IMG/VR virus record: IMGVR_UViG_3300008267_000009 | Span: 1-64,000 of that record | DNA: 64,000 nucleotides | From: a virus | Direction: 5' to 3' (one strand) | Shown: positions 12,293 to 31,036 of the stretch, piece by piece | How the letters are laid out: every line of letters starts with the position of its first letter | How positions within the stretch are numbered: position 1 is the first letter of the stretch | Made by a program: the position numbers and the translations under genes | Notes under the pieces: model-generated | Seen by the model: only the letters and a program-made list of their open reading frames with translations | Databases searched by the model: none | Told to the model about the DNA's origin: nothing

Positions 12293-12597
12293 TGGCAAAA
12301 AGATTTCTAACTCCGATTCAGTTGGCAACGCTAGATGCGCCACCAGCTAGTCCTTCAGTTGGTCAAATCTATTACAACTTAAATGAACAAACTATAAAGG
12401 CGTATAATGGAGTTGTTTGGTATGATGTGGCTGGTCCAAAAGAAATACTTGAGCACACTCACGGAATAGACGGCATAGTTGATGAAGTTTCTTACGGAGA
12501 TTATGTAGATGAAGATAGAGTTATTGCAGATAGCTCTAATGTAAACGCAAACTTTATAGAAGATTATATAGACGGAGGTAGTGCAAGTGGCAATTAG
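12292..12597 (+). CDS. Small fibre-associated protein
   Basis: N-terminus similar to preceding gene (P.SP..GQIYYN); HTH motif. Confidence 0.6.
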   Translation: MAKRFLTPIQLATLDAPPASPSVGQIYYNLNEQTIKAYNGVVWYDVAGPKEILEHTHGIDGIVDEVSYGDYVDEDRVIADSSNVNANFIEDYIDGGSASGN

Positions 12598-15500: not shown

Positions 15501-17143
15501 CAAATATTCACGGAATTGCAAACACTGCTCTTTTAGCAACAACATCTTATGTTGATACACAAGTTGCACAGGCTAGCGTTACAGATAAAGCTTACACTGA
15601 TGCTGAAATTCAAGAATTAGATCTATCAATTGCAACAGATTTATCTACACTAGATGCTTCATTAAAACAGTATACAGATTATGGTATAGCTCAAGAAGTA
15701 ATTGCTAGAAATAGCAGAATAGCTTCAGATATAACTGCACATCAAAATGATACAACTTCAGTTCATGGAATAGCAGACACAAGCGTACTTGCAACTAATT
15801 CTTCTGTAGATGCTGCAATATCTGTACATAACTCAGATACTCTAGGGGTACACGGAATTGTAGATACTTCTCTTTTGACAACACAAGAATATGTTGGAAA
15901 TGCTATATCTACTCAAGCTGGAATTACAGAAGGTGCAGCAAACTCATTTACAACTTCAGCAATTTCAACACATAATGATGTAACAACAAATGTTCACGGA
16001 ATAACAAATACAGCAAACTTAGTATATACTAATGATGTAAGGCTTTCTGACACAAGAGTTCCAACAGATAATTCAGTAGGTACTGCAAAAATTATTAATG
16101 ACGCAGTAACAAATGAAAAAATATTTGGAGGAATTGATCAGTCTAAGATAACTAATTTAGTTTCAGATTTATCATTAAAGGCTCCATCAGAAGATCCAGT
16201 TTTTACTGGTAGCGTAACTCTTCCAACATCAATATCTTTATCAAATTCTTCAATAATAGATTTGACACATTTATCATCAATTACTAGCTCTGTTCAGGGG
16301 CAAATTGATTTAAAGGCTTCTTTATCTTCTCCAGCTCTTAGTGGAATTCCTACTGCTCCAACAGCAGCACCAGGAACTACAACTACACAAATTGCTACAA
16401 CAGAATACGTACATTTTGAAATAAATGATTTGCTTAATGGTGCTCCAGCAGCCTTAGATACATTAAATGAGTTGGCAGCAGCAATTAATGATGATGCAAA
16501 TTTTGCTGGAACAGTAACAACAGCCCTAGGATTAAAGGCACCACTTGCCTCACCTACATTTACTGGTACAGTAATTCTTCCAAATTCAACTATTACAGAA
16601 GCAATGATTGCAGCAAATGCAATTACAAATGATAAAATTAGCGCATCAGCCGCAATTGATCAATCTAAGATTTCAGGTTTGGTTAGCGACCTGAATTTAA
16701 AGGCTCCAAAAGCTTCTCCAACATTTACTGGAACAGTAACAGTTCCATCTCCAGTAAATCCAACAGATGCCGTAAATAAAGCATACGTTGACTCATATGC
16801 CCAGGATATTATACCTTTAGATAATTTGACTAGCCAATTTAACGGCGCAGAACAAAGGTTCCAGCCAAAATTCAATAATACTGTAGTAAACATAACCAAC
16901 CCTCTTAGGCTTTTAATAAGCATTAATGGTATAATTCAAATACTAGGAAATCAAGATAATCATTGGTTATCTCCGATACCTCAAGAAGGTTTTTTTGTAG
17001 ACTCTCAGGGTTATCTGAACTTTGGAGAACCTGTACCAAGAGGATCTACATTTGACGGTAGAGTTATGGGCGGACCCGCCACTAACTCTATAACCAAATC
17101 AAAGTATCCGTTTAGACCAATAGATATATTATTAGGAGCGTAA
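12587..17143 (+). CDS. Long tail/whisker fibre with Mtd_N-like domains and His-pair repeats
   Basis: RIQLRRDTAANW..GEVGIETD..KIGDG, with the GE.G.ETD..KIGDG part recurring internally; three AP..L.TLNELAAAI.DD repeats; nine H-x7-HGI repeats; GTG at 12587 is 8 nt after GGAGG. Confidence 0.8.
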   Translation: MAIRIQLRRDTAANWSSVNPILRAGEVGIETDSLRFKIGDGSSTWSSRPYVNVLPSELTELSQDAVNQALTAGNGITKVYNDAANTITVSVDTSVIANKQYVDDSLAAVLDTAPELLNTLNELAAAIGDDPNFFASVAANLASHEADTTNIHGIPDTSILITTTGTQTLSNKTLASPILTGIPTAPTATAGTNTTQVATTEFVKTAVDNLIDGAPGVLDTLNELAAAINDDPAFFNNVATNLASHEADTTNVHGIANTAKLITDDGSQTLLNKTIMSPVITTPTGIVKSDVGLANVDNTSDINKPLSTAAIDALALKANLSDITELAQDAVNTSLNAGVALSKNYDDVNNIITIDLDNTTVNAGSYGSTTKIPTFTVDNQGRLTAAGETDVATNLSIAGDTGSDTVNLLTDFLTVEGGEGIDVLVTNNTINVSAEDATSTNKGVASFDQTDFTVAQGNVTLNTERVQDIVGGMIDSNTESGISVTYNDIDGKIDFNVADPTITLTGDVTGSATMTNLGNVEISTTIEPNSISLGTDTSGNYVATITGTTNEIEVTGSGSETASVQIGLPSDVTVTNNLHVGNNLEIMGNLTVNGTTTTINSSTLSVDDKFIELGDIANPTDATADGGGIALKGDTEKHIYWYNTSDAWTSSENIDIHAGRSYMIDEVPVLTSNSVLNINKDNLGKITQKQSSSFLASEVLRNGEIGFETDTLQIKIGDGTSTWAQLEYVTVTPDGLQNNLGDYIPLSQLDAPGGAVKLDNDGNVLAQNSVILNSDHDPATAPQPGTNYGIIVERGTSTDAGIVWDETVDQWKVFENGNAYNPIASQNYVAQNLAVEINNHNNETTGVHGILSTADLVTESELTAAITISETSTATAIATAVSAHHNDTTAVHGIADTAQLVTQTQLTAQGTTLSADIATASSSAALNLAIHEADTTNIHGITDTSQLAYQSDVSAAETAAATALASHEADTTNIHGIANTALLATTSYVDTQVAQASVTDKAYTDAEIQELDLSIATDLSTLDASLKQYTDYGIAQEVIARNSRIASDITAHQNDTTSVHGIADTSVLATNSSVDAAISVHNSDTLGVHGIVDTSLLTTQEYVGNAISTQAGITEGAANSFTTSAISTHNDVTTNVHGITNTANLVYTNDVRLSDTRVPTDNSVGTAKIINDAVTNEKIFGGIDQSKITNLVSDLSLKAPSEDPVFTGSVTLPTSISLSNSSIIDLTHLSSITSSVQGQIDLKASLSSPALSGIPTAPTAAPGTTTTQIATTEYVHFEINDLLNGAPAALDTLNELAAAINDDANFAGTVTTALGLKAPLASPTFTGTVILPNSTITEAMIAANAITNDKISASAAIDQSKISGLVSDLNLKAPKASPTFTGTVTVPSPVNPTDAVNKAYVDSYAQDIIPLDNLTSQFNGAEQRFQPKFNNTVVNITNPLRLLISINGIIQILGNQDNHWLSPIPQEGFFVDSQGYLNFGEPVPRGSTFDGRVMGGPATNSITKSKYPFRPIDILLGA

Positions 17144-17147
17144 GCAC

Positions 17148-20100
17148 ATGGCAAGAAAAATTTTAGTAGAAACACATTATACATTTACACCATCGACTAA
17201 GACTTTGGTGATTCCAAAGGCAATCCCACGAGAGAGACTGCTTTTAATTACAAACGTTACCCAAAATCAGGTAATTTATAACTTCTCTGACCCTTCACTT
17301 AATGCAACATCTTATGTTTCATTAGAGGCAAATGGTGTCGAGACCACGACCATCGTTTTTGCATATAATACAGCAGCGATGTTGTCTACAGATAAAATTT
17401 CAATCACATTGGATGAGGTGGATGAATCATTTACTCCATCAGAAACAATGTTGGATCCAACAAATAAGCTTAGAGTAACTCAGCCACAAGCTCTTATTGA
17501 TACAGACTTTGAATATGGAACACAGATTTCAAAGTGGGAAAACTTAGCTCTCTATAACAACAAGCCTTTTGCTTACGCATCTCCAACTCCAATTGCAAAT
17601 ATTGGATCAATTACTTACGGCTTGGGAACAAACGTTGTAACCGTATCATTAACTTCAGGAGTTGGTCCAAATAACGGAGACCCTATTTCTGTACAAGATA
17701 CATTTGCTCCAGCAGCAAACGGTAACTTTGTTGTGGAGTCTGGTGGAGGAACAAATACATTCACTTATACAGCTTCTTCAAAAAATAGCCAAGCTAACCT
17801 AACAAATATTTTAGACACAAATAAAACAGCAATTTATAGAGCTACAGTATTTAGTGGCGCAAGAATTGGATTTATTCCAGCATTAACCTATTCTACTAAT
17901 AGAATTAACGTTACTACTACAGTAGACCACGGACTAGCAATTGGAAACGAAATTGTTGTTAAGGGATCAACAGCTACAACAAATCCACCAAACGGTAACT
18001 TTGTTGTTGCAACAGTTCTTAGCCCAACACAGTTTGTGTATTACGCAAATAACGTTCCAACAGGAACACTAGGAGGGCCAACAGAAATTTATGTTAGACC
18101 TCAAGGTGTTTTCTTGCATAGACCAGCAGACGGCGGAGTAATTTTTGGTACTCAAGCTGGTTCTAACTACGGAGAAGCATATCGTCAAACAAGACGTTAC
18201 TTTAGATATCAATCTGGTAAGGGCATTCAAATGTCTTCAGGAACAATTCTAAAGCCATACGCAGGTATTGACTCAATTACTTCATCTGGAACAACTGTAA
18301 CTGTTGTTACAAAAGAAAAGCACTGTATCCAGCCAGGAACTATAGTAAAAATTGGTGGTGCTGATCAATCAGCATACAATGGAACATTCGTGGTAAACGA
18401 TATTCTAGGATACAATAGGTTCTCATATACAGCTCTATCTACACCATCAAGCACTATTGCAACTGGCAACGTGTTTGCTTCTATTGAAGCATGGTACGGA
18501 TGTCAAAATAGACTTGGTATGTTTGATGAGCAAAACGGAGTATTTTTTGAGTATGACGGAACAAAGCTTTATGCAGTTCGTAGAAGCTCAACAACTCAAC
18601 TTTCTGGAAGAATTAACGTAACTAACGGTTCAGACGTTGTTGTTCAGTCACTTAGCGAACAACCAACATATTTTAGCAAGCAGTTAATTCCAGGAGATAC
18701 AATTGTAATTAGAGGACAATCTTACAGAATTACTTCGATTACAAATGATATTGAAATGAATATTTCTCCTGCATATAGAGGAGCAACAGCTTCACTATGT
18801 ATTTACTCAAAGACAATTGATACAAGAGTTCCTCAAGATCAATTTAACATGGACAAGGCAGATGGAACAGGACCTTCACAATATACAATGGACCTTTCTA
18901 AGATGCAGATGTTCTATATCGACTATACATGGTATGGAGCAGGATTTATCCGTTGGGGTGTAAGAGGTCCAAAGGGTAACATTATTTATTTGCACAGAAT
19001 GCAAAACAATAACGTTAACACTGAAGCGTATATGCGCTCTGGTAACCTTCCAGGTAGATATTCTTCAACTACAAACCCTCCTTTTACAAGCCTAACAGAT
19101 ACAGTATTGACTACTGGCACATCTTTGCCAGTAAAAGATACATCAAGATTCCCTAGCTCTGGAACCTTGGTTGTTAGAAATACAACACAGGTTGAGTATG
19201 TAAATTATTCTGGTAAAACAGCAACATCATTTACTGGTTTAACTCGTGCAAAGCTTGGAGCACAAAACGTAGCAATTACTATTGGAAGCGGACAAAATAG
19301 AGGAAATATTACACTTGGTGCTGATACAGCAAAAATTCAGGTTGGTATGAGAGTCGTTGGGTCAGAGTATCCAGATGAGACTTTTGTATCTGCAATTAAC
19401 TACGATACAGGAGCAATTACATTTAGCCAGCCAGTAGCTGCAGCTAACTCTGCTTTCTCAGCAGTTCCAATGGGATCAGATGTTCCTCTACAGTTTACCT
19501 ATGACGCACAATCACCAGCATGTGTTGAGTTAGCTTTCCCAACATTTGCAGCAACTATTTCACACTGGGGAACATCAGTTATTATGGACGGACAGTATGA
19601 TGAAGATAAGTCACTTATCTTTACATATGGACAGAGAACTGCAACTTCAGTTCCATCAGGAGCAACAAGAGCACTTCTTTCAATTCGTGTAGCACCTTCT
19701 GCAGATAACGGAATTGCTGCAAACTTTGGTGCTCGTGAAATTGTAAATAGAATGCAGCTTGCCATGAGGGCCCTTGACGTATCTGTATCATCAGGTTCAA
19801 CAATTCTGGTACAGGCAATACTTAATGGAACACCATCACAGTCATTAACATGGACAAATGCAGTTGGTAACGTAACAGGCGCAGTCAACTCATCTCTTGC
19901 ACAAATTGCAGACTATTCTGGTCAAAGCTCAACAGTTTCTGGCGGAGAAGTTACTGGTGGATTCTTTACCACTGGAACAAACTCAGTTGACCTAAGTACA
20001 CTTAGAGATCTAGGAAACTCTATCTTGGGTGGAGGAGGAACCGTAACAACTTCTGGTATTTATCCAGACGGTCCAGACGTTCTAACAATTACAGCAACAA

Positions 20101-20162
20101 ACCTCGGAGGGTCAACTGCTAGCGTTTACTCTCGTCTATCTTGGACAGAAGCATCAGCGTAA
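17148..20162 (+). CDS. Large virion structural protein
   Basis: 1004 aa, Thr/Ser/Gly-rich; KLRVTQPQALIDTDFEYG, RQTRRYFRYQSGK, WYGAGFIRWG motifs seen in phage structural proteins. Confidence 0.65.
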   Translation: MARKILVETHYTFTPSTKTLVIPKAIPRERLLLITNVTQNQVIYNFSDPSLNATSYVSLEANGVETTTIVFAYNTAAMLSTDKISITLDEVDESFTPSETMLDPTNKLRVTQPQALIDTDFEYGTQISKWENLALYNNKPFAYASPTPIANIGSITYGLGTNVVTVSLTSGVGPNNGDPISVQDTFAPAANGNFVVESGGGTNTFTYTASSKNSQANLTNILDTNKTAIYRATVFSGARIGFIPALTYSTNRINVTTTVDHGLAIGNEIVVKGSTATTNPPNGNFVVATVLSPTQFVYYANNVPTGTLGGPTEIYVRPQGVFLHRPADGGVIFGTQAGSNYGEAYRQTRRYFRYQSGKGIQMSSGTILKPYAGIDSITSSGTTVTVVTKEKHCIQPGTIVKIGGADQSAYNGTFVVNDILGYNRFSYTALSTPSSTIATGNVFASIEAWYGCQNRLGMFDEQNGVFFEYDGTKLYAVRRSSTTQLSGRINVTNGSDVVVQSLSEQPTYFSKQLIPGDTIVIRGQSYRITSITNDIEMNISPAYRGATASLCIYSKTIDTRVPQDQFNMDKADGTGPSQYTMDLSKMQMFYIDYTWYGAGFIRWGVRGPKGNIIYLHRMQNNNVNTEAYMRSGNLPGRYSSTTNPPFTSLTDTVLTTGTSLPVKDTSRFPSSGTLVVRNTTQVEYVNYSGKTATSFTGLTRAKLGAQNVAITIGSGQNRGNITLGADTAKIQVGMRVVGSEYPDETFVSAINYDTGAITFSQPVAAANSAFSAVPMGSDVPLQFTYDAQSPACVELAFPTFAATISHWGTSVIMDGQYDEDKSLIFTYGQRTATSVPSGATRALLSIRVAPSADNGIAANFGAREIVNRMQLAMRALDVSVSSGSTILVQAILNGTPSQSLTWTNAVGNVTGAVNSSLAQIADYSGQSSTVSGGEVTGGFFTTGTNSVDLSTLRDLGNSILGGGGTVTTSGIYPDGPDVLTITATNLGGSTASVYSRLSWTEASA

Positions 20163-20183
20163 AAGAATAAGGAGGAGACTTAA

Positions 20184-20687
20184 ATGTCTGTACAAAAAGT
20201 AAAAATACCTTATAACGCTGAACTATCAGTAAAAACTCTGTCGGTAGCAGAAGAATTTGGTGTTAATGGTTCCGCCACACTAGGCGGAACTGTTAACCTT
20301 ACTGGAACTATGAATACTGGTAATGGAACATTAAATTTTTCAGATGGACCTCAGTCTAAACAAGGCGTTCCTTCTATTACTAAAATAAATAAGGTTTATT
20401 CAAATTATACTCTTTCTTCTTTAGACGAAAGAGACTCTATAATTGAAATGTCATTAAAGGTTGCTGGAACACTAACTATTCCAGCAGACACACCTTCTCT
20501 AACATTTCCAATAGGAACAACTATAGATGTTATTCAAACCAATTCTGGTCAAATTACTATAGGTAGTGCTTTTGGAGTTAATCTTAATGCTACCCCAGGA
20601 TTAAAAATAAGAAGTCAGTGGTCAATTGCCACTCTATTAAAACGGGATGCTAACACATGGTTAGTATTCGGAGATCTTACGGCTTAG
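20184..20687 (+). CDS. Fibre-associated structural protein
   Basis: FPIGTTIDVIQ..GQITI...RSQWS.ATLLKR..NTW.VFGDL domain common in phage fibres. Confidence 0.6.
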   Translation: MSVQKVKIPYNAELSVKTLSVAEEFGVNGSATLGGTVNLTGTMNTGNGTLNFSDGPQSKQGVPSITKINKVYSNYTLSSLDERDSIIEMSLKVAGTLTIPADTPSLTFPIGTTIDVIQTNSGQITIGSAFGVNLNATPGLKIRSQWSIATLLKRDANTWLVFGDLTA

Positions 20688-20695
20688 GAGTATAA

Positions 20696-22357
20696 GTGGG
20701 AAAGAAATCTGGTAAGAAGTCAGCAGCAGCAGGCGATTTTGAAAAGCCGTTGCCACCACTTAACCCTGTAGCAACAGATGTTGGAACAAATAGACTTTTT
20801 AATAATGGAGCCGCAACAGTAAGCTTTACAGTAGATCCATTAAGTACTGTTCCAACAAGCTTTACAGTAAGATCTACTCCAGGAAGTTTTACTGGTGAAG
20901 GATCGGCAAGCCCAATTACAGTTGTAGGACTTCAAAGTAATGTTAATTATACTTTTAAAGTTTTAGCAACAAATGCTAATGGTAACTCAGATGAATCTGT
21001 ATCTTCAAATCAAATTTTAGCAACTACAGTTCCTGGTATTCCAAGAACTCCAGCAGTTTCGTCAACTGTAGCAGATCAAGATGTTGTATCTTGGACAGCA
21101 CCAGCAAATGACGGTGGAAAAGCTATTTCTAGTTATAGAATTACATCTAGTGATCCAAACACTCAGCCACCTTCAGATGGAACACCAGGTCCAGTTTATA
21201 ATAACGTAACATCACCATACACAATCTCAGAGGTTGGTGGAACTTCACAGTCTTATACAGTAGTAGCAATTAATGCTAACGGAACTTCTGTTGGAGCTAC
21301 AACAAATCAAGTAACAACATTCTTTAGCCCACCGTCATTCTTCGGCCCACCAGGATTCTTTGCCCCACCAGCATTTTTCTTGCCACCAACTTTCTTCGTT
21401 CCACCTCTTTTCTTTACGCCACCAGATTTCTTTGCACCACCACGCTTCTTTGCACCACCACGTTTCTTTTCTCCTCCAGGGTTCTTTGCCCCTCCAGGAT
21501 TCTTTGGCCCACCGTTTTTCTTTGGACCCCCAGCATTCTTTGGTCCTCCAGGATTCTTTAGCCCACCAGGGTTCTTTGCCCCGCCAGCGTTTTTTAGCCC
21601 ACCACGCTTCTTCGGCCCACCGTTCTTCTTCGGCCCACCAGGGTTCTTTGGTCCTCCAGGATTCTTTGCACCACCACGTTTCTTCGGCCCACCAGGGTTC
21701 TTTGGTCCTCCAGGATTCTTTAGCCCACCAAGATTCTTTAGCCCACCACGTTTCTTTGGTCCTCCAGGATTCTTTAGCCCACCAAGATTCTTTAGCCCAC
21801 CAAGATTCTTTAGCCCACCAAGATTTTGTATTCAGGAGGATACTCCTGTACTCACAACGGACGGGTACAAGAAAGCAAAAGATATTGTTATAGGAGACAC
21901 ACTAGCTACGCTAGACTTTGACGATATAACATACGGAGCAGACAATTGTTCGTTTGGAGTAGTTACAGCAGAATGTTCAGAAATAGTAAATTCATGGTCA
22001 GTTAATGAGTTAAAAAATCATAAACTATTAAATTCTAAAATAACTAATATTTTAACTGAATCTCATAATAAAACTATGGTTATTAACGATGATCAAGATA
22101 AGAGATTTTCATTAAAAGAAGATGTTTTAATTTATAAAAATAATAAATATGTTATTGTTACAGTTGAAAACTTATCTGTAGGAGATTCTTTAGTTATTTA
22201 CTCAGATGAATCTATCAATATTGTTCCAATAACTAGTTTAAATATTATAAAAGAGAAAACAAATACAATTCTTTTCTATAGAGAGCCATACGGCATGATT
22301 ATTGCTGGAGGTATGCTTGCATACAATGGATGCCCCATCCATATGTTGACTAACTAG
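20696..22357 (+). CDS. FN3-domain / (FFxPPx)28 repeat / C-terminal Hint-domain protein
   Basis: Two FN3-like domains (YTFKV.ATNANG.S; VSWTAPANDGG..I.SY), 28 hexapeptide repeats, Hint from CIQEDTPVLTTDG to AGGMLAYN. Confidence 0.85.
   Translation: MGKKSGKKSAAAGDFEKPLPPLNPVATDVGTNRLFNNGAATVSFTVDPLSTVPTSFTVRSTPGSFTGEGSASPITVVGLQSNVNYTFKVLATNANGNSDESVSSNQILATTVPGIPRTPAVSSTVADQDVVSWTAPANDGGKAISSYRITSSDPNTQPPSDGTPGPVYNNVTSPYTISEVGGTSQSYTVVAINANGTSVGATTNQVTTFFSPPSFFGPPGFFAPPAFFLPPTFFVPPLFFTPPDFFAPPRFFAPPRFFSPPGFFAPPGFFGPPFFFGPPAFFGPPGFFSPPGFFAPPAFFSPPRFFGPPFFFGPPGFFGPPGFFAPPRFFGPPGFFGPPGFFSPPRFFSPPRFFGPPGFFSPPRFFSPPRFFSPPRFCIQEDTPVLTTDGYKKAKDIVIGDTLATLDFDDITYGADNCSFGVVTAECSEIVNSWSVNELKNHKLLNSKITNILTESHNKTMVINDDQDKRFSLKEDVLIYKNNKYVIVTVENLSVGDSLVIYSDESINIVPITSLNIIKEKTNTILFYREPYGMIIAGGMLAYNGCPIHMLTN
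21320..21823 (+). repeat. 28 x 18-bp coding tandem repeat (FFxPPx)
   Basis: 504 nt; units FFSPPS, FFGPPG, FFAPPA ... FFSPPR; degenerate at synonymous sites. Confidence 0.97.
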
Positions 22358-22374
22358 ATATTAAATGCTAAAGT
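22346..22374 (+). promoter_or_regulatory. Promoter for the oxygenase cluster (leaderless)
   Basis: TTGACT-17nt-TAAAGT with TGc extension, 6 nt before ATG at 22381. Confidence 0.65.
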
Positions 22375-22380
22375 AGGAAT

Positions 22381-22995
22381 ATGAATAAAATAGAAATATT
22401 CCCAGGTATATGGAAATTTGAAAATGTTTTTGATAAGTCATTTGATGTAATAAATGAAATTGAAAAAGCCGTATCAAAAGGGGATTGCTCTTGGGCTAAA
22501 GCTCAAGTAGGACTAGAAGAAACAGATATAGAATATAGAGACTGTTATGATTTTAAGCTAAGCGATTTAGGAAAAGATCATAATATATATAAACATCTTT
22601 ATGAATCTCAAAAGCCTTATGTAGATGCATATTGCGATTATTACCAAATAAAAATGGGTTTTTGGGAATGGACTAATGTTGTTAAATATGGTCCAGGACA
22701 ATATTTTAAAGAGCATGCAGATCATGGATGGTCATATATATCTACAGTTTCATTAGTATCTTATCCAAATGACGACTATGTTGGAGGAGAATTAGCTTTT
22801 CCAAAATTAAAGATTTTTGAAAAACCAAAGGCAGGGGACTTATACATATTTCCTTCTACCTATTTGTTTTCCCACGTAGCAATGCCAGTAAGGTCGGGAA
22901 CTAAATATTCATTTGTAACAATGCTAGATTATAATGATGACACTCATACTGTAGAGTATGAAGAATATATAGATAGAAAGTATGGTATAAAATAA
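22381..22995 (+). CDS. 2OG-Fe(II) oxygenase, prolyl-4-hydroxylase-like
   Basis: HAD..YPNDDYVGGELAFP..SHVAMPVRSGTKYS. Confidence 0.88.
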   Translation: MNKIEIFPGIWKFENVFDKSFDVINEIEKAVSKGDCSWAKAQVGLEETDIEYRDCYDFKLSDLGKDHNIYKHLYESQKPYVDAYCDYYQIKMGFWEWTNVVKYGPGQYFKEHADHGWSYISTVSLVSYPNDDYVGGELAFPKLKIFEKPKAGDLYIFPSTYLFSHVAMPVRSGTKYSFVTMLDYNDDTHTVEYEEYIDRKYGIK

Positions 22996-23693
22996 TGTTT
23001 TCTCCAAATGCAGAGTACTTACATTACGGAATTGTTGTATATAGAGATGTTTTTACAAAAGAAATGGACCTTGTAAACAGACTAGAAAATTCTTTAAGTA
23101 AGAGCGAAGGTAAATATAAGTGGAATCAGTCTCAAACTGGTTATGCACATACAGATTTAAAATATAGAGATGCACACGATTTTAAAATTAAAAGAAATAG
23201 CGATGACAGTCTAATGCTATCAATGCAGTATGTTAATAAAGACAATAAAAAAGAGGCCGAAATAGAGTTAGAAAAAATTTGGGAAGACTCTTATAAAGCA
23301 CAGCTAAAGCCAGTTGAAGAATATCGTAATGCTTTTGGACTTGCCCCATTAAACTATTGGGAGTCATTTAACTTTGTTAAGTATGGACCAAACCAACACT
23401 TCCAGGTTCATTCAGATCACGGATACTCCTACATTTGTGTGCTTTCTTCTGTTGGATATATTAATGATGATTACGAAGGCGGAGAGCTCTTCTTTGATAA
23501 GTTTAACTTAAAGATTAAACCAAAAGCAGGAGATCTTTATTTATTCCCGTCTTCTTATATTTATTCTCATGCAGCAATGCCAGTAACAAGCGGAACAAAA
23601 TATTCAATTGTTACTATGCTAGATTATCTAGAAGCTCCACATACGCCAGACTATCGTGATATTGAAAAGAGATATACAGAAGGTTATGTATAA
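22995..23693 (+). CDS. 2OG-Fe(II) oxygenase, prolyl-4-hydroxylase-like
   Basis: HSD..YINDDYEGGELFF..SHAAMPVTSGTKYS. Confidence 0.88.
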   Translation: MFSPNAEYLHYGIVVYRDVFTKEMDLVNRLENSLSKSEGKYKWNQSQTGYAHTDLKYRDAHDFKIKRNSDDSLMLSMQYVNKDNKKEAEIELEKIWEDSYKAQLKPVEEYRNAFGLAPLNYWESFNFVKYGPNQHFQVHSDHGYSYICVLSSVGYINDDYEGGELFFDKFNLKIKPKAGDLYLFPSSYIYSHAAMPVTSGTKYSIVTMLDYLEAPHTPDYRDIEKRYTEGYV

Positions 23694-24405
23694 AATAAAA
23701 GCTTATGTTTCTTCTGAAGATGCTGCTACATTGTCTCCTTTACAGGCAAAACGTGAGTGGATGGAGCAAACATATGACAGACATGCGTATACTTGTTTCC
23801 CAGTAACTTTAACAAATACTCTTGGTTGGTCATTATCTTTTCCAGAAGACATAACTTTTGTTTGGGATGGAAAATCAGATTCTAGTAAAGATCACGTAAA
23901 AATTCTTGCTGGACATAAATATTGCTACACAGAAAGAGCTAATGCAACTATAAGTTTTAAAACAGGATTAATTTTTAAAACTGAAGAAAATGTTAGCCTA
24001 CTTGGAATGCCAGCCCCTAATTACTTTTTAGATGGGGCTCAACCTTTTACAACAGCAATAAGCACTTCTTTTTATACTGCAGAATTTCCAGTAGCGTGGA
24101 GAATAACTAAGCCGTATACTCCAATTACAATTCCAGCAGGACACCCAGTAATATCAGTAATACCAGTGTCACTTGGCGAAATCGAGCTTTCAGAAATAGA
24201 GATGCTAAATAAAAACACTATGCCTATTTCTCCATATGCAGATCAATATAATGAAACAGAACATATTAAATATGTTGCAAAGCTTGCAGAAGAAAACAAG
24301 TGGACTAATTTTTATCGTGATGCTGTAGATTATTTAGGAAATAAATTGGGTAAACATGAAGTTAAAAGTTTAAAACTTAAGGTGGTAAATAATGCCAAAA
24401 ATTAA
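23686..24405 (+). CDS. DUF6065-like protein
   Basis: REWM...HAYTCFPVTLTNTLGW ... IPAGHPVISVIP; ATG at 23686. Confidence 0.6.
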   Translation: MYKIKAYVSSEDAATLSPLQAKREWMEQTYDRHAYTCFPVTLTNTLGWSLSFPEDITFVWDGKSDSSKDHVKILAGHKYCYTERANATISFKTGLIFKTEENVSLLGMPAPNYFLDGAQPFTTAISTSFYTAEFPVAWRITKPYTPITIPAGHPVISVIPVSLGEIELSEIEMLNKNTMPISPYADQYNETEHIKYVAKLAEENKWTNFYRDAVDYLGNKLGKHEVKSLKLKVVNNAKN

Positions 24406-25132
24406 ATTTGGTTCTGCAAGACCTTATAATAATGAAAATGAGCACAAGTCTTTAGAGCCAGGGCCAGCTAAAAATTTTATGCCAAATTGGTGGAAAGATG
24501 CAACAAAATATTGGGTTGATGATAACGGAGATCCAATAATGGCAGCATACAATAAAGATGATGAGCTAGAAAAATCTTTAGGGTTTAAATCTTGTCCAGC
24601 ACTCCTAGATGTTTTTTCAACAGGATATGTTTTAAGAACTCCGACAGACATAATGTTTGCCCAGTATGATGGAGAGCCACATGTAATTATTGATCCAAAA
24701 TATAAAGATTTTTGTGAAGCAAGAAGTAGCATGCCACAGTTTGAATATCCTCATGGATATAGCAAAAAGCATTTTCATTGGTGGCCTAATTGGGGAATAC
24801 AAATGCCAGATGGATATAGTGCTTTAGTAACTTCTCCTCTCAATAGAAATGATCTACCATTTTTAACAGTTAATGGAATAATAGATAGCGATAGGTATAC
24901 TTTGCCAGGCTTAATGCCATTCTTTTTAAAAGAAGGGTTTTCTGGTTTAATTCCAAAAGGAACACCGTTTGCTCAGATATTTCCGATAAAGCGTGAGGCT
25001 TGGACTTCAGAGATGGTATACTATAGTAATGACGAAATGTACGATAGGCACATGTCAATCGTATCAAAATTTAGAGTTAAATTTGGCGGAGTTTATAAAA
25101 AAACAACTTGGGTTAAAAAAAGCTATGAATAA
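24392..25132 (+). CDS. DUF6065-related protein
   Basis: MPNWWK, FKSCPALLD..GYVLRTP, GYSALVTSPLNR, GIIDSD, IPKGTPFAQIFP. Confidence 0.55.
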   Translation: MPKIKFGSARPYNNENEHKSLEPGPAKNFMPNWWKDATKYWVDDNGDPIMAAYNKDDELEKSLGFKSCPALLDVFSTGYVLRTPTDIMFAQYDGEPHVIIDPKYKDFCEARSSMPQFEYPHGYSKKHFHWWPNWGIQMPDGYSALVTSPLNRNDLPFLTVNGIIDSDRYTLPGLMPFFLKEGFSGLIPKGTPFAQIFPIKREAWTSEMVYYSNDEMYDRHMSIVSKFRVKFGGVYKKTTWVKKSYE

Positions 25133-25141
25133 GGAGAAAAA

Positions 25142-25894
25142 ATGGACAATATAATTTCTTTCGATAGTGACGTTTTGTTTAAAAGCGCTCACGACGATGA
25201 TATCATTCAAAATCATGATTCTTTAGAAGAGGGTAAGCATATTAGAACTGCTAGAAAGTCAATCACCCCTTCAGGTTATTTTGGGTCTGGTCCAGAGATG
25301 ATAGGCGAAATAGAAAATTTTCTTACAGAAGAAGAGTGCGACTATCTAGAAAATTTTGCCAGAAACAATAAGATCTGGGACGTAACCGAATCTCATTATA
25401 ATGAAAATGGCACAATTATTTATGATCACAGACCATGGGAAAATAGAGTAGCTACACTAAACACCTTAATGAAAGCAGATCAAAAAGTTGTAGACATGCT
25501 TCGTGAAGTAATAGCAAGATTTAAACCAGTTATAGAAGATTTTTTTGGTGTTGTAGAAGTTGAGCCAACAAACCCAGCTATAGTTAGATGGCCAGTAGGA
25601 ACTTTTCAATTTCCACATGCAGATAAAGAATTACACGAGGGTCCAGATGCAGGAACTGAAAACGATTTCCCTTGGTATGACCTAGGAACAATATTTTATT
25701 TAAACGAAGATTATGAAGGAGGGGAGCTTCATTTCCCATTACAAAAAATTGCATTCAAGCCAAAAAGAAGAGCGGTATATTTTTTCCCAGGAGACAAAAA
25801 TTATATTCACGGAGTAGATAAGGTTACAAAGGGAACAAGATATACATCTCCATGGTTTTGGACTATTAAACAATTAACAAAGGAAGACAAGTGA
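25142..25894 (+). CDS. 2OG-Fe(II) oxygenase, prolyl-4-hydroxylase-like
   Basis: ENFLTEEEC, HAD, YLNEDYEGGELHFP, IHGV..V..GTRYT. Confidence 0.88.
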   Translation: MDNIISFDSDVLFKSAHDDDIIQNHDSLEEGKHIRTARKSITPSGYFGSGPEMIGEIENFLTEEECDYLENFARNNKIWDVTESHYNENGTIIYDHRPWENRVATLNTLMKADQKVVDMLREVIARFKPVIEDFFGVVEVEPTNPAIVRWPVGTFQFPHADKELHEGPDAGTENDFPWYDLGTIFYLNEDYEGGELHFPLQKIAFKPKRRAVYFFPGDKNYIHGVDKVTKGTRYTSPWFWTIKQLTKEDK

Positions 25895-26631
25895 TTAGTC
25901 AAGAAATTTTAGATAAATATCCAACAATTAAAGAGTGGAAAGACGACGTCTTTACTGTTGAAAATTTTATTTCCGAGCAAGAAGCAGAAGCTATGATTAA
26001 ATATTTAGAATCATTAGTTGAAAGTGGAAGACTTAAGTGGAATCAAATTTCTTTTTATGACTCTTTTGCAATGGGATTCTGGGACTCAGATCCTACTCTG
26101 CCAGAGTTTGGCCTACCAGAAGACTACTTTAACAGATTAAAGTTTAAATTTAAAAAGTGTGGCGAAGATATATTTGGACATAAATTTGCTGAAATTAGTT
26201 ATCATGCTCAAAAGTGGGTAGAAGGAGCTTTCGCAGATTTTCATTCAGACAATTCAAAAGACGGTAAGCCAACAGCGTTTGAAAGAAGTAGATATGCTGG
26301 ATTCTTATACTTAAATGATGATTTTGATGGAGGCATATTAAACTTTCAACATTATGATATAGCAATAAAGCCAAAGGTTGGTTTATATGCAATATTTAAA
26401 GGCGGACATGGTAACGAACACGAAGTCACTCAAGTCAAAAATACTAGAAGAGATAGATATACAATAGGATCTTTTTGGGATGACGCTAGAATGGAATATA
26501 CAGACGAACAAAGGCAAAGGTGGGCTGATGAATTAGCTGCAACTAGAAAAGAACAAGATTTGTCTTACGATCAATGGGCAAAAGACAAAGCTGCTGGAAA
26601 TGCTCCAATTTATAAGGGTAAGGGTGAATAG
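25891..26631 (+). CDS. 2OG-Fe(II) oxygenase, prolyl-4-hydroxylase-like
   Basis: HSD, YLNDDFDGG.L.F, EHEV..V....RYT. Confidence 0.86.
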   Translation: MISQEILDKYPTIKEWKDDVFTVENFISEQEAEAMIKYLESLVESGRLKWNQISFYDSFAMGFWDSDPTLPEFGLPEDYFNRLKFKFKKCGEDIFGHKFAEISYHAQKWVEGAFADFHSDNSKDGKPTAFERSRYAGFLYLNDDFDGGILNFQHYDIAIKPKVGLYAIFKGGHGNEHEVTQVKNTRRDRYTIGSFWDDARMEYTDEQRQRWADELAATRKEQDLSYDQWAKDKAAGNAPIYKGKGE

Positions 26632-26633
26632 TA

Positions 26634-27332
26634 ATGAATAATGTTAATGTTAAAGATTTGACAGAAAATCTTACAATTTTTGCTGATAAAATATTTGTTT
26701 TTAAAAATGTTATAAATTTAATGGAAAGTTGGCCTAGAGAGCTAGAAGAGTTAGATGCAAGATTTGAAGATGAAAAAACATTTAATATAAAAGGAAACCC
26801 ATTAAAGCAGCTAGGTCCTTGGTTGCCATGGCCTGCAAACGATGACCCAGAGTATTTTTATGGTAGAACTAAAACAGGGCATTTTATATTTAATCATTCT
26901 TCTGAGCCATCTGGAGGAGATTTAATTGCCTATGATCTTGTAGAGGTTATGAGAAAAGCAGCAGAAGAATTGGCTCAAAAATATTTTAGTAGATTAGATA
27001 TAAAGGACATACCTCATCTTCCTAGTACCTTTGAAATTAAAGAATACAACACTGGCTCAGACATGGGGCCACATTTTGATGATTTCCCAGGAGACGATAA
27101 TCAAACAATATTATCTGCTGTTATTTATATTAATGATGACTATGAAGGTGGAGAATTAGCGTTTCCTCAACATAATATTACAATTAAACCAGAATCTGGA
27201 TGTTTAATATTTTTCCCTTCTACTCCAGATTATATTCATCAGGCAAAAGTTGTTACATCTGGTAAAAAATATTGTGTTCCACTATTTTTCTATAAAAACC
27301 CTCCAGTATCAATTTCTGACGATAAGGGCTAA
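26634..27332 (+). CDS. 2OG-Fe(II) oxygenase, prolyl-4-hydroxylase-like
   Basis: MGPHFD, YINDDYEGGELAFP, IHQAKVVTSGKKY. Confidence 0.88.
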   Translation: MNNVNVKDLTENLTIFADKIFVFKNVINLMESWPRELEELDARFEDEKTFNIKGNPLKQLGPWLPWPANDDPEYFYGRTKTGHFIFNHSSEPSGGDLIAYDLVEVMRKAAEELAQKYFSRLDIKDIPHLPSTFEIKEYNTGSDMGPHFDDFPGDDNQTILSAVIYINDDYEGGELAFPQHNITIKPESGCLIFFPSTPDYIHQAKVVTSGKKYCVPLFFYKNPPVSISDDKG

Positions 27333-27337
27333 AGTAA

Positions 27338-29044
27338 ATGAGCTACCAGTCAAAAATTATGCAAGAAAATCCAATAGGATTTTGGAGACTTGACGAGAGT
27401 AGCGGAACTACAGCATATGATTTTTCAGGATGCTCAAATAACGGAACTTACTCTGGAACCTTTAACTATAATATATTGCCTCTAGTTTCTGGTGGCACAA
27501 GAGGAACTTTAATCACAAACTCTTCTTCTATATCTCTTCCAGTAACTAAAAACTATTATGCTGTTACAGCAACAGAAGGTCTAGCAACTAAATATACAAG
27601 CGATAACGATTTTACGCTTGAAGCCTGGATTTATCCAATGTTTTATGGATCTTCTAACGATATACAAAAAATATTTGGTTCTTCTGAAACTGGAATATTT
27701 TGGCAAAAAGGAAATATTATTTTTAAGGTTGGATCTGAATCCGTAGAGTATAGCCTGCCATATATTAAAAAATCAATTTACTTAGTTGCAGTATATACAA
27801 CCAGGTCTATTGTAATTTATATTGATGGTATACAGGCAGCCTCAAAAACTTTATCTAATTTTAAATTTTCTGCAACAAATTTTGAGCCATCAATAGGTCC
27901 TTGTAATACTGCACAGGATTCTTTTATAGTTGATGCTCCAGCAATATATAGATATGCATTAACAGATGCTGCTATAAAAAAACATTATATAGATGGTAAT
28001 ATCACATCTCCAGCAATTCAAGTTGTATTTCCAGACGAAGGAGTTTTGTTCTCTGGTACTGATGCAAATATAAGATCTACCTATGAGTACTCTTATCCAA
28101 TTAATAAAAAATGGGAAGACATTTTATCTTCTAACACTTATTATGATAATGAATCTAGGTACGTTTCTTTTTATTCTGATTTATCTGGAGCACAAACATT
28201 TGTATATCAAGACTCTGTTTTAATACCAAATAGTTTAGGTCTAACTACATCTAAAATTGAATGGAGAGATTCCGAATTAGTTTCTGTTCGTTCAAGCGTA
28301 GATGGCATTAACTGGCAGGTCTGTACTAATGGTAGCCCAGTACCTCAGTATAAAATTGGATCATTTTCTTCAGAATATAAACTGTATCTTGAAATTACAA
28401 TGACAACAACAGATGTTGCAAAATATAAGCCTAGGCTATCATTTTTTTGCGTAAGTTTTTATTCAGATAGAACTTTATACGCAGACAACTACGGAGACAA
28501 AATTACTTCAACTTCTGATTATAATTTATCTTCAATCAGGTACCCAGTATTGTCAAGAAATTATATGAATGGAATTAGGCCCTTATCAGACAAATTTACA
28601 ATAAACACCCTATCAGATATAAAATCAATAGAAATGATTTACACTCCTACCGCAACTATCGGAAATGGGTTGGTAAATGGATTATCATGGAATAATAGCG
28701 GAGCAATAACAAAAAGTAATATAAGCAAGATATACATCAATAACGTAGATATTTCAACCCAATCAAATATATCATCATATTTAATCCCAGAGCAGCCACA
28801 CCACATAGTGGTTGTTTTTACATCACCAATTACAGGGGCCATAGACCTAAATGTTGGTGGCGGACAGAACTTATATAAAAATATAGCAATATACCAAAAA
28901 GAAATTACTGGCAGTATTTGTGACACCCACTTTACCTTGTATACTGGGCAACCTCAGTCTAGCTTAACAGAGCCAGTCGTAACCCTGACAGATAGTGAGC
29001 TAAAATACTATAACAATGACTGGGTGGTTATCCAAAGCGTATAA
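27338..29044 (+). CDS. LamG/concanavalin A-like virion protein
   Basis: PIGFWRLDE.SGTTAYD.SG, FTLEAWI, IYIDG, AIYRYALT....HY. Confidence 0.75.
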   Translation: MSYQSKIMQENPIGFWRLDESSGTTAYDFSGCSNNGTYSGTFNYNILPLVSGGTRGTLITNSSSISLPVTKNYYAVTATEGLATKYTSDNDFTLEAWIYPMFYGSSNDIQKIFGSSETGIFWQKGNIIFKVGSESVEYSLPYIKKSIYLVAVYTTRSIVIYIDGIQAASKTLSNFKFSATNFEPSIGPCNTAQDSFIVDAPAIYRYALTDAAIKKHYIDGNITSPAIQVVFPDEGVLFSGTDANIRSTYEYSYPINKKWEDILSSNTYYDNESRYVSFYSDLSGAQTFVYQDSVLIPNSLGLTTSKIEWRDSELVSVRSSVDGINWQVCTNGSPVPQYKIGSFSSEYKLYLEITMTTTDVAKYKPRLSFFCVSFYSDRTLYADNYGDKITSTSDYNLSSIRYPVLSRNYMNGIRPLSDKFTINTLSDIKSIEMIYTPTATIGNGLVNGLSWNNSGAITKSNISKIYINNVDISTQSNISSYLIPEQPHHIVVVFTSPITGAIDLNVGGGQNLYKNIAIYQKEITGSICDTHFTLYTGQPQSSLTEPVVTLTDSELKYYNNDWVVIQSV

Positions 29045-29105
29045 TTTGAACATTTTGATGACAAAATGTAGACTTATGTATTAAAGAATGGTATCATATT
29101 ATCCT

Positions 29106-29450
29106 ATGGATATTAAAAGATTAAATCAGACTACTGTTGAAGAAACAACACTTGGCATATATGTTTGGGAAATGCCAGACGGTAGATGGATTGGAGATGA
29201 CGATGGCAATTTTCTTTCGATCACGTCAAAAAAAGGCAATAGATCCAGAATCGATGCTTTGGCTAGAGAAGTTCGCTCATACGGCATATATGAGGGCGGG
29301 CCTAAATTTCTTTCTAACAGAAGAAAAATATCAGACGAAGAATTTGAACACCAAAAACAAAGACTTGATTGGGGACTAGTTCCAGATCCTTTGGATATTG
29401 GAAACTATAAGGATGAAATGAGAGCCTTAAAAAATGGGGGAAATAAATAA
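29106..29450 (+). CDS. Hypothetical protein upstream of portal
   Basis: ORF 29088..29450; ATG at 29106 lies just after promoter TAGACT-17-TATCAT. Confidence 0.7.
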   Translation: MDIKRLNQTTVEETTLGIYVWEMPDGRWIGDDDGNFLSITSKKGNRSRIDALAREVRSYGIYEGGPKFLSNRRKISDEEFEHQKQRLDWGLVPDPLDIGNYKDEMRALKNGGNK

Positions 29451-31036
29451 TGGAATTTATTGAAGACGATAATGAAATGCAAGATTCTATTAATATATCT
29501 AATGTAGCAGACTGGATGAAATTTAATGCGCCAAGTGCATCTACAGAAACAGACCCATTTAAGGTAGACGGAGAAGAATTACGAAAAATAAATGGACTAG
29601 GCTCCTCTTTTCGTAGAAAAATGGGAAGAGATCTTCAAAAAAGATTTGTTGGTATAGACGGAACTGCAACACAGCAAAACTTGTTAGCCCAAGCAATTAC
29701 TGGCTACGCAATGTTTGATTTAATTGAACCACCTTATAATTTAGAATATCTTTCAAAAATTTATGAAATCTCTCCATACAATTATGCAGCGATAAACGCT
29801 AAGGTTTCAAACATTGTTGGCCTTGGTTATTCTTTTGAGGAAACAGGAAAAACAAAAGATGCGCTAGATGAAATTGATGATCCTAAGCAGCTTGAAAGAG
29901 CAAGAAATAAAATTAATAGAATTAAAAGAGACCTAGAGCAATGGCTAGAGTCTGTAAATGAAGAAGAAACATTTACTGAAACGTTAGTAAAGGCTTATGT
30001 AGATTTAGAAGCAACTGGTAATGGATATATTGAAATCGGAAGAACTGTTGCTGGAAACATTGGATATATTGGACATATCCCAGCAAAAACTATGAGAGTT
30101 CGTAGACTACGTGATGGCTTTATTCAATTGCTATATGGCAAGGCTGTATATTTCAGAAATTTTGGAGACTTATCAACAGAGAATCCAATTGCTGGTGCTG
30201 AAGATAGGCCTAATGAAGTTATTCATCTAAAGAAATATACACCTACAAATAATTATTATGGAATTCCAGATATTATTGCCGCACAAAATGCAATGGCAGG
30301 AAACGAATTTGCTGGTAAGTATAACCTTGATTATTTTGAAAACAAGGCTGTTCCAAGATATATTATTACAGTAAAGGGAGCAAAGCTTTCTACAGATTCT
30401 GAGAGAAAGCTTCTTGAATTTTTTCAAGTAGGGCTTAAGGGTAAAAACCATAGATCTCTTTACATACCTTTGCCACCAGATTCTCCAGACTCAAAAGTTG
30501 AATTTAAAATGGAGCCAATTGAAGCTGGTACACAAGAAGGATCTTTTAATACATACAGACTGTCAAACAGAGACGAGATATTACTTGCCCACAGAGTTCC
30601 TATTAATAAGGTAGGAACCCCAGCTGGAGTAAATCTTGCAGTAGCTAGAGATGCCGATAAAACATTTAGAGAACAGGTCTGTGGCCCAGCACAAAATAAT
30701 TTAGCAAAGAAATTAAATAAAATTATTGAAGAAAAAACAGATGCTTTATTAATTAAATTTAATGAACTTACCCTTACTGATGAAGACACTCAGTCAAAAA
30801 TTGATGAAAGATATTTGCGTATGCAGGTAATTACCCCTAATGAGGTTAGAATTAGAAAGGGTATGATTCCAATTGAGGGGGGAGACGAGGTCGTTGATTT
30901 AAAGGCTGATGCGGCAGCTGAGCAGGTTGCACAAGCTGGAAAAACCAGGACTAGAGATTCTGAGCGATCTGCAAATTCTCCTGATAAATCTGGGGAGGGT
31001 CGTAATGCTAAAGGCGATGGGCGGTCAGCAGAGTAA
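29450..31036 (+). CDS. Portal protein
   Basis: DLEATGNGYIE, EVIHLKKY...YYGIPD, YFENKAVP, ILLAHRVP, ITPNEVR. Confidence 0.92.
   Translation: MEFIEDDNEMQDSINISNVADWMKFNAPSASTETDPFKVDGEELRKINGLGSSFRRKMGRDLQKRFVGIDGTATQQNLLAQAITGYAMFDLIEPPYNLEYLSKIYEISPYNYAAINAKVSNIVGLGYSFEETGKTKDALDEIDDPKQLERARNKINRIKRDLEQWLESVNEEETFTETLVKAYVDLEATGNGYIEIGRTVAGNIGYIGHIPAKTMRVRRLRDGFIQLLYGKAVYFRNFGDLSTENPIAGAEDRPNEVIHLKKYTPTNNYYGIPDIIAAQNAMAGNEFAGKYNLDYFENKAVPRYIITVKGAKLSTDSERKLLEFFQVGLKGKNHRSLYIPLPPDSPDSKVEFKMEPIEAGTQEGSFNTYRLSNRDEILLAHRVPINKVGTPAGVNLAVARDADKTFREQVCGPAQNNLAKKLNKIIEEKTDALLIKFNELTLTDEDTQSKIDERYLRMQVITPNEVRIRKGMIPIEGGDEVVDLKADAAAEQVAQAGKTRTRDSERSANSPDKSGEGRNAKGDGRSAE

Follow-up and report, generated by a model that had tools for sequence, protein, structure and literature searches.

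The analysis of a 64,000-nucleotide window of viral DNA (GC approximately 36%), which comprises the first 64 kb of IMG/VR record IMGVR_UViG_3300008267_000009 (100.5 kb, estimated to be 86% complete), reveals a compact locus in an uncultured lake phage (positions 20696 to 27332 of the window), where a protein built of two FN3 domains, a long run of Phe-Phe-x-Pro-Pro-x (FFxPPx) hexapeptides and a C-terminal Hint domain is followed directly by a cassette of five 2-oxoglutarate (2OG)-Fe(II) oxygenases and two DUF6065-type proteins. We propose, at a probability of roughly 60%, that this locus is a phage protein-tailoring unit within the fibre/appendage module, in which the oxygenases would hydroxylate the prolines of the repeat and the Hint domain would then remove itself. 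The proposal draws on the anatomy of the locus, the intact catalytic motifs and family assignments of its enzymes, and a strict co-occurrence of the cassette with Pro-Pro repeats across related loci, from which the repeat is probably the substrate of the cassette enzymes. This phage is not alone in having the system, which constitutes a large family in lake viromes, with 587 relatives of the fourth oxygenase of the cassette (ox4) found in IMG/VR.

The repeat protein (20696..22357, + strand; GTG start, 553 aa) consists of a short basic N-terminus that is kept in relatives, two FN3 domains (20756..21319, + strand; approximately aa 21-208), 28 consecutive FFxPPx units (21320..21823, + strand; aa 209-376), the Hint domain and a 9-aa tail, and this open reading frame (ORF) bears out a first-pass annotation of the same DNA, which had described two FN3 domains, exactly 28 hexapeptides and a C-terminal Hint domain. 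Pfam finds one FN3 domain only, the first (fn3, E 2.9e-8); the AlphaFold model, built from 17 relatives, contains both with confidence (predicted local distance difference test score, pLDDT, of ~90), and a Foldseek search with the full model returned matches to tandem FN3 pairs. The FFxPPx tract spans 168 residues with 56 Pro and 58 Phe and has a pLDDT below 50, that is, no confident fold. Its 18-nt units vary at synonymous sites (TTC/TTT for Phe; CCA/CCT/CCC/CCG for Pro), indicating that constraint acts on the protein and not on a DNA repeat. A 177-aa ORF that overlaps the repeat in a different frame (21360-21893, + strand) was rejected as a gene and regarded as a compositional by-product.

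Within the units, the third position (x3) is G, S or A in 25 of the 28 window units and the sixth (x6) is variable (G in 10, R in 9). In relatives, 95% of 1150 units have S, A or G at x3, x6 is free and often R, N, Q, D or L, and both the Phe and the Pro pairs are kept. This pattern fits a candidate recognition motif [S/A/G]-Pro-Pro. The number of units ranges from 5 to 29 across the family, and a protein with ~90% identity (L019:2151-3758) carries 25 units versus 28 in the window. Throughout the 100.5-kb record, no other Pro-Pro-rich ORF and no collagen-like Gly-X-Y ORF was found, and the idea that the true substrate is some other fibre protein of the record, whether collagen-like or rich in Pro, was rejected accordingly.

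The seven genes of the cassette all lie on the + strand with intergenic gaps of -38 to +23 nt, in the order ox1 (22381..22995; 204 aa, PF13640 E 1.8e-10, HxD..H..K motif intact), ox2 (22995..23693; 232 aa, PF13640 E 3.3e-13), a DUF6065 protein (23656..24405; 249 aa), a second DUF6065-type protein (24392..25132; 246 aa), ox3 (25142..25894; 250 aa), ox4 (25891..26631; 246 aa) and ox5 (26634..27332; 232 aa, PF13640 E 3e-13). All five oxygenases score above the PF13640 cut-off (30.4-51 bits versus 27), and in their alignment the metal-binding triad H, D, H is invariant, with K or R, the residue that binds the C5 carboxylate of 2OG, standing before an invariant Tyr in each. Pfam and PHROGs matches together with this motif alignment thereby confirm the cassette of five intact oxygenases and two DUF6065-like proteins that had been described earlier. 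A promoter and terminator scan of the locus gave no excess over shuffled sequence, and the tight one-strand packing without terminator-like excess was counted in favour of the proposed unit.

Comparison of oxygenase profiles (ox1 and ox2 jointly; ox3, ox4 and ox5 separately) with solved structures places all five enzymes, as a predicted class, nearest to protein prolyl/lysyl hydroxylases. The ox1/ox2 profile is nearest to the prolyl 4-hydroxylase (P4H) of B. anthracis (E 4e-10), as are those of ox3 (E 2.9e-12) and ox5 (E 4.9e-9), and the ox4 profile is nearest to human prolyl 3-hydroxylase 1 (P3H1, 8k0e; E 3.5e-9). Further matches include the P4H of the chlorovirus PBCV-1 (5c5t, for ox1/ox2 and ox5) and the Chlamydomonas P4H (2jig, for ox3), so that the top PDB matches of the set comprise 3itq/5hv0, 8k0e, 5c5t, LH3, 6ax6, 2jig, 7zsc and mimivirus L230; PiuC-type PKHD hydroxylases were also among the matches. 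None of the profiles has AlkB or TET as its nearest solved structure. A complex prediction of ox2 (with alignment) and repeat residues 311-376 returned a score of 0.00 without controls, which gives no verdict and bears on binding in neither direction.

The link between cassette and repeat was examined across ~180 related IMG/VR loci, which were gathered from four starting points, namely the repeat protein, the 568-aa protein encoded next to the cassette, distant Hint proteins and ox4, and annotated with profiles from the window genes, a cassette being defined as at least three oxygenases in a row. A Pro-Pro repeat ORF was found within 3.5 kb upstream in 114/114 cassette loci having at least 1.5 kb of upstream DNA, and these loci represent 78 distinct repeat proteins (62 clusters at 90% identity, 28 at 70%). 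The sample seeded with ox4 was drawn without regard to the repeat protein and gives the same result on its own as the pooled loci. The linkage persists even where repeat proteins fall below 50% identity and despite swapped N- and C-terminal domains, and five to seven oxygenase paralogue groups are conserved among the related loci. Seen from the side of the repeat, an oxygenase lies within the next three ORFs for 68 of 72 distinct Pro-Pro Hint proteins, the four exceptions being second copies in loci with a cassette elsewhere or loci that are cut short.

Aromatic-repeat Hint proteins without Pro-Pro (FGFSPFxV, FGFTPFGA, YSFTP/YSFVP) have 0-2 oxygenases nearby and never a cassette. Relatives that share the 568-aa gene and the portal without having a cassette carry FN3 and Gly-rich fibre genes, halogenases or methyltransferases instead, and no real Pro-Pro-rich ORF was found in them; the short Pro-Pro-rich ORFs that do appear were rejected as antisense frames of the Gly-rich fibre genes. 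In a tree of the 568-aa protein, cassette presence requires at least five gains or losses, and the repeat protein changes together with the cassette in 5/5 independent pairs. The first-pass annotation had named a cassette equally common in relatives lacking a Pro-rich repeat as the outcome that would speak against its reading; the comparison was run, and no cassette was found in Pro-Pro-less relatives. Its view of a substrate-plus-modifier locus is strengthened, by comparative genomics alone, as regards the enzyme family and the tie of the cassette to Pro-Pro repeats in more than 100 loci; proline is the probable modified residue.

The Hint domain (21827..22327, + strand) runs over 167 residues from Cys378 to Asn544, ends in ...AYN, and is separated from the repeat tract by one extra Phe (Phe377). 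The window sequence alone scores below the Pfam cut-off (Hint_2, 15.9 bits versus 28.4). A profile of 28 relatives matches the bacterial intein-like (BIL) domain 2lwy in the PDB at E 5.6e-9 and also mini-inteins, and 21 of the 28 relatives match Intein_splicing in Pfam at E<=1 (best 1.3e-7). The domain has a pLDDT of ~90 in the AlphaFold model, and the Foldseek matches listed for the full model are all to FN3, which leaves the sequence profile as the basis for assigning a Hint fold. Cys1 (Cys378 in the window) is the sole invariant column across the 28 relatives. The block-B position (aa 472-475) reads S-L-K-E in the window, with no His, versus T/S-x-x-H in other clades, and the window clade has Tyr-Asn instead of the penultimate His-Asn, followed by Gly and a 9-residue tail with no +1 nucleophile; many relatives end 1-4 residues past the His-Asn, or at the Asn itself. 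Since no nucleophile follows the terminal Asn and the tail is 9 residues long, splicing is excluded and cleavage at Phe377-Cys378 alone is possible; an identity as a splicing intein was likewise rejected for want of a Cys/Ser/Thr +1 nucleophile and a C-extein.

Variation at this end of the protein is considerable. The FN3-(FFxPPx)n protein lacks Hint in 14 of the 114 cassette loci, where it ends either after the repeat or in a tail of about 20 residues with four Cys, and Hint is therefore dispensable for the link with the cassette. Hint thus looks like a removable end module and not a required part of the modification system. As to the earlier proposal that Hint releases or ligates the product, the domain itself is backed by the profile and Cys1, its cleavage is predicted, and the link with the enzymes does not need it. 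In the four-Cys tails (L117:4233-5117, L120:2243-3145, L162:1688-2548), the first Cys stands exactly at the position of Hint Cys1, and the tail may represent what is left of a Hint domain, or else a small module that forms a knot or binds metal. Among the Pro-Pro Hint proteins, one clade (L163-L168, L171, L173, L174, L182, L189) has Ser instead of Cys as first residue of Hint (...KS-VGVNTLLRT), which would imply an ester instead of a thioester intermediate.

Of the two DUF6065-type proteins, the first (23656..24405) matches PF19541 at E 1.4e-32 and 113.5 bits versus a cut-off of 26.6. The second (24392..25132) has no Pfam match at E<=0.01 and owes its membership to phrog_7084 (E 3e-32), which it has in common with haloarchaeal virus homologues, and to the Atlas DUF6065 clusters. 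A model of the first product (pLDDT 78) forms a dUTPase-like beta-barrel, for which Foldseek returned dUTPases at E 3e-4 with a template modelling (TM) score to the target of up to 0.73 and 11-15% identity, and the DUF6065 profile gave a weak match to a dUTPase in the PDB (E 0.08). The second product alone contains GIIDSDRY, which recalls dUTPase motif 3, the sole motif of the five looked at. This dUTPase-like fold rules out DUF6065 as a cupin or oxygenase-like partner. DUF6065-type genes were also observed beside Hint proteins whose repeats lack Pro-Pro and in loci that encode no Hint protein at all (L088:12029-13524, L100:11320-12060, L043:5871-9971); as DUF6065 occurs without a Pro-Pro repeat, its function is not tied to that repeat.

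In the proposed mechanism, the repeat protein would be the substrate, with a folded FN3 pair and an extended, very hydrophobic (FF-[S/A/G]-PP-x)28 tract. The five collagen-type paralogues would be made from the same late co-directional gene string and would hydroxylate the Pro-Pro prolines in the nascent, unfolded repeat, the paralogue groups probably differing in position or regiochemistry, for example 4-hydroxyproline versus 3-hydroxyproline, with ox4 nearest to a prolyl 3-hydroxylase (P3H). Hydroxylation would raise the polarity of the tract and shift it towards a polyproline-II conformation. The Hint domain would then cut itself off at Phe377-Cys378 via a thioester, and its removal would leave an FN3-repeat product with the last repeat as C-terminus, which would form part of a virion appendage. 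With Arg frequent at x6, trypsin should free FFSPPR-type hexapeptides, which makes mass spectrometry of the tract simple.

Several observations weigh against this mechanism. The leading alternative is a hitch-hiking auxiliary island in which oxygenases and DUF6065 genes occupy a hypervariable slot of the fibre module and move as a block with the repeat gene, with roles such as the handling of 2-oxoglutarate, host metabolism, the repair of DNA or RNA, or the hydroxylation of a host protein. The repeat gene adjoins the cassette, so that block gain and loss by recombination would also give co-occurrence, and physical linkage of neighbours could explain part of the pattern. The pair test on the 568-aa tree reaches p 0.06 only and cannot separate function from linkage; in a tree of the Hint domain, 3/5 pairs move together and none opposite. 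The Hint proteins without Pro-Pro belong mostly to one lineage, in which ribonucleotide reductase (RNR) lies between fibre genes and portal, and may reflect few events, and one locus with an FSFTPP repeat (L101, five units) has a single oxygenase. Four more PF13640-type genes occur elsewhere in the genome, beyond the window (83203-85440, 96732-97478), far from Pro-rich ORFs; PF13640 genes are common in aquatic phages, and cyanophages have them without such a repeat protein. Moreover, cleavage by the window Hint is uncertain in view of its missing block-B His.

The island explanation gains further from the variability of the slot, which in cassette-less relatives holds tryptophan halogenases, a methyltransferase and DUF6065 genes, from the nucleotide-enzyme fold of DUF6065, and from the presence of Pseudomonas PPHD, an EF-Tu hydroxylase (4iw3), among the PDB matches of ox5. 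Phage 2OG oxygenases are also treated as metabolic or repair genes in the cyanophage literature (PMC3037559). We nevertheless consider it unlikely, although the most credible of the rivals, in view of a linkage that holds in all 114 loci through repeat-protein divergence and changes of the N- and C-terminal domains. What the cassette tracks is also the Pro-Pro character of the repeat, with or without Hint; among solved structures the oxygenases come closest to collagen-type hydroxylases, and a place in the late structural gene string would be unusual for early host-takeover genes.

An improbable second alternative keeps the tailoring of the repeat, or of another virion protein, and moves it mainly away from proline, to Phe beta-hydroxylation or to Arg/Asn/Asp hydroxylation at x6, with some paralogues perhaps acting as inactive binding or chaperone subunits. 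The five to seven paralogue groups exceed the need of two Pro positions, x6 is frequently R, N, Q, D or L, Phe is conserved as much as Pro, and a gene of the Asp/Asn beta-hydroxylase family is added in related loci. Against these points, the Phe-rich repeats without Pro-Pro (FGFSPFxV) have no cassette, every oxygenase profile is nearest to prolyl or lysyl hydroxylases, and the full catalytic set is present in all five oxygenases.

The idea of a precursor of a ribosomally synthesized and post-translationally modified peptide (RiPP), whose 28 hexapeptides would be hydroxylated, released with the aid of Hint and possibly cyclised, as raised in the first-pass annotation with the cyclopeptide antamanide in mind, is very improbable: the repeated core-like architecture, the tailoring enzymes adjoining the precursor and a thioester-forming Hint that could in principle drive ligation are outweighed by the lack of a protease, cyclase or transporter in or beside the cassette (Pfam, PHROGs), the two FN3 domains, the position in the fibre module between fibre and head genes, a Hint that acts at its own junction only and cannot free 28 units, and a unit number that drifts (25 versus 28) with x6 free, as for a spacer-like structural tract.

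Related loci carry a range of other tailoring genes, and the architecture of an aromatic/Pro repeat joined to Hint forms a large family with many different N-terminal domains, whose gene neighbours often belong to protein-tailoring enzyme families. In the L081 clade (tailoring and fibre features at L081:11323-12595 and L081:16922-18046), a gene of the Asp/Asn beta-hydroxylase family and a Sulfotransfer_2-like gene (23.3 bits, just above the cut-off) lie between the Hint protein and ox1, and a fibre gene with a Peptidase_S74 self-cleaving chaperone follows the cassette. At L112:3075-6235, a Hint protein with YY-x-PP and YY-AAP type repeats is followed directly by a Skp1-type N-acetylglucosamine (GlcNAc) transferase (PF11397, E 3e-27) and a DUF6065 gene, and a weaker PF11397 match lies downstream of the FSFTPP Hint protein (L101:7788-8549). 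These PF11397 neighbours suggest that some relatives may glycosylate hydroxyproline; a search of the present genome for PF11397 gave no gene. A GT25 gene is among the genes beside related repeat-Hint proteins, and single oxygenases follow Hint proteins with Thr-Pro or FGFTPF repeats. In the cassette-less locus L050 (L050:4493-7505), a tandem pair of tryptophan-halogenase genes (PF04820, E 1e-104 and 7e-79) fills the slot that separates the fibre genes from the 568-aa gene, with one oxygenase and one DUF6065 gene just upstream. Judged by family membership, such neighbouring tailoring enzymes support the view that these phages may decorate appendage proteins in general.

The surroundings of the locus agree with the earlier placement between virion fibre genes and the portal, with two intervening genes before the latter. 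Upstream, fibre-type genes (12581..20687, + strand) encode a 1520-aa tail-fibre-like protein, a 1004-aa virion structural protein (17148-20162) with 43-45% identity to proteins of T4-like cyanophages (cyanomyoviruses), and a 167-aa protein with a fibre-tip-like C-terminus. Downstream (27338..31036, + strand), the 568-aa Laminin_G_3 protein and a 120-aa protein (27338-29450) separate the cassette from the portal (29450-31036), which is followed by the protease and the major capsid protein. The portal has 57% identity to portals of large Streptomyces siphoviruses, and the ancestry of the phage, as read from the cyanophage-like structural protein versus the Streptomyces-siphovirus-like portal, is mosaic.

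A megablast search of the locus against cultured phages gave no match, tblastn matches of the repeat protein were limited to FN3 or Hint pieces, and near relatives of the cassette are confined to metagenomes. A scan of genome contigs with ox4 matched metagenome-assembled contigs only; the contigs with ox4 relatives (L191-L198) were binned into metagenome-assembled genomes (MAGs) labelled Bacteroidia, Acidimicrobiaceae, Luteolibacter, Beijerinckiaceae and others, and they are most likely phage contigs mis-binned into genomes of lake bacteria. The bins span many unrelated phyla and so point to no particular host.

The nearest precedent is the chlorovirus P4H with its viral Pro-rich repeats. The enzyme of PBCV-1, the subject of Eriksson et al. 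in 1999, reportedly acts on virus-encoded Pro-rich repeats such as (PAPK)n. Both viruses encode a P4H-type 2OG oxygenase together with Pro-rich repeats, a likeness further illustrated by the match of ox1/ox2 and ox5 to the PBCV-1 structure. PBCV-1, however, infects a eukaryotic alga and has one enzyme, encoded away from the genes of its substrates, whereas the present system belongs to a bacterial virus, has five to seven paralogues directly after one FFxPPx gene, includes Hint and DUF6065, and has a predicted activity.

Collagen modification offers a second parallel, as the nearest solved relatives of the oxygenase groups are the B. anthracis P4H, human C-P4H, P3H1, lysyl hydroxylase LH3 and mimivirus L230. 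Collagen-type hydroxylases act on X-Pro-Pro-type repeats in an extended conformation, where P3H and P4H share a Pro-Pro pair between them, each modifying one of its prolines. Self-removal of Hint may be likened to removal of the procollagen C-propeptide after assembly, by analogy only. Unlike collagen, the phage repeat has Gly at 20/56 third positions (S, A, R, L and others elsewhere) and no triple helix is predicted; a collagen-like reading of the FFGPPG units was rejected on this count and on the freedom of x6 in relatives, and the longest G-x-x run in the tract is 4 triplets. Plant and algal extensins likewise combine long [S/A]-Pro-Pro repeats with a P4H-type enzyme, represented by the Chlamydomonas structure matched by ox3, and the Gnt1-type PF11397 gene after the Hint-repeat protein of related loci recalls the Skp1 PhyA/Gnt1 pathway. 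In contrast to extensins, the phage repeat contains Phe-Phe pairs, and glycosylation here is pure conjecture.

For the Hint domain, the closest counterparts are of the BIL/Hedgehog type, with Cys1, a C-terminal position on a variable surface-type protein, no +1 nucleophile and 2lwy as the best match. The window clade differs from them by the missing block-B His, Tyr in place of the penultimate His and the lack of a sterol-recognition region, and its cleavage is predicted. A removable end is also a feature of the Peptidase_S74 self-cleaving C-terminal fibre chaperones, whose gene stands beside the cassette in related loci.

A more far-reaching combination of ideas would join a hydroxylated aromatic-Pro polymer on the particle, ligation through the Hint thioester, and a general virion-tailoring role of the orphan 2OG oxygenases of aquatic phages. 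There, the polymer may bear 3- and 4-hydroxy- or dihydroxyproline, perhaps with further glycosylation, as a bacterial-virus counterpart of extensin or of mussel-foot adhesive proteins, and the Hint thioester, beyond removing the domain, would ligate the modified tract covalently to a second protein of the virion or a molecule of the host envelope. The orphan oxygenases would then be tailoring enzymes of the virion and not metabolic genes. Taken jointly, this is unlikely.

No account of a comparable phage system emerged from full-text literature searches. If the proposed tailoring unit is correct, it would, as far as these searches show, be the first example of a bacteriophage that hydroxylates a structural protein of its own, and it would extend collagen- and extensin-like chemistry beyond cells and giant viruses. 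In aquatic phages, few unexplained auxiliary genes are as common as the 2OG-Fe(II) oxygenases, which annotation usually assigns to host metabolism or DNA repair, and the locus offers this large group a concrete candidate substrate in the form of the phage's own Pro-Pro repeat protein. Because the family is abundant in lake viromes, the effect on annotation would then be broad.

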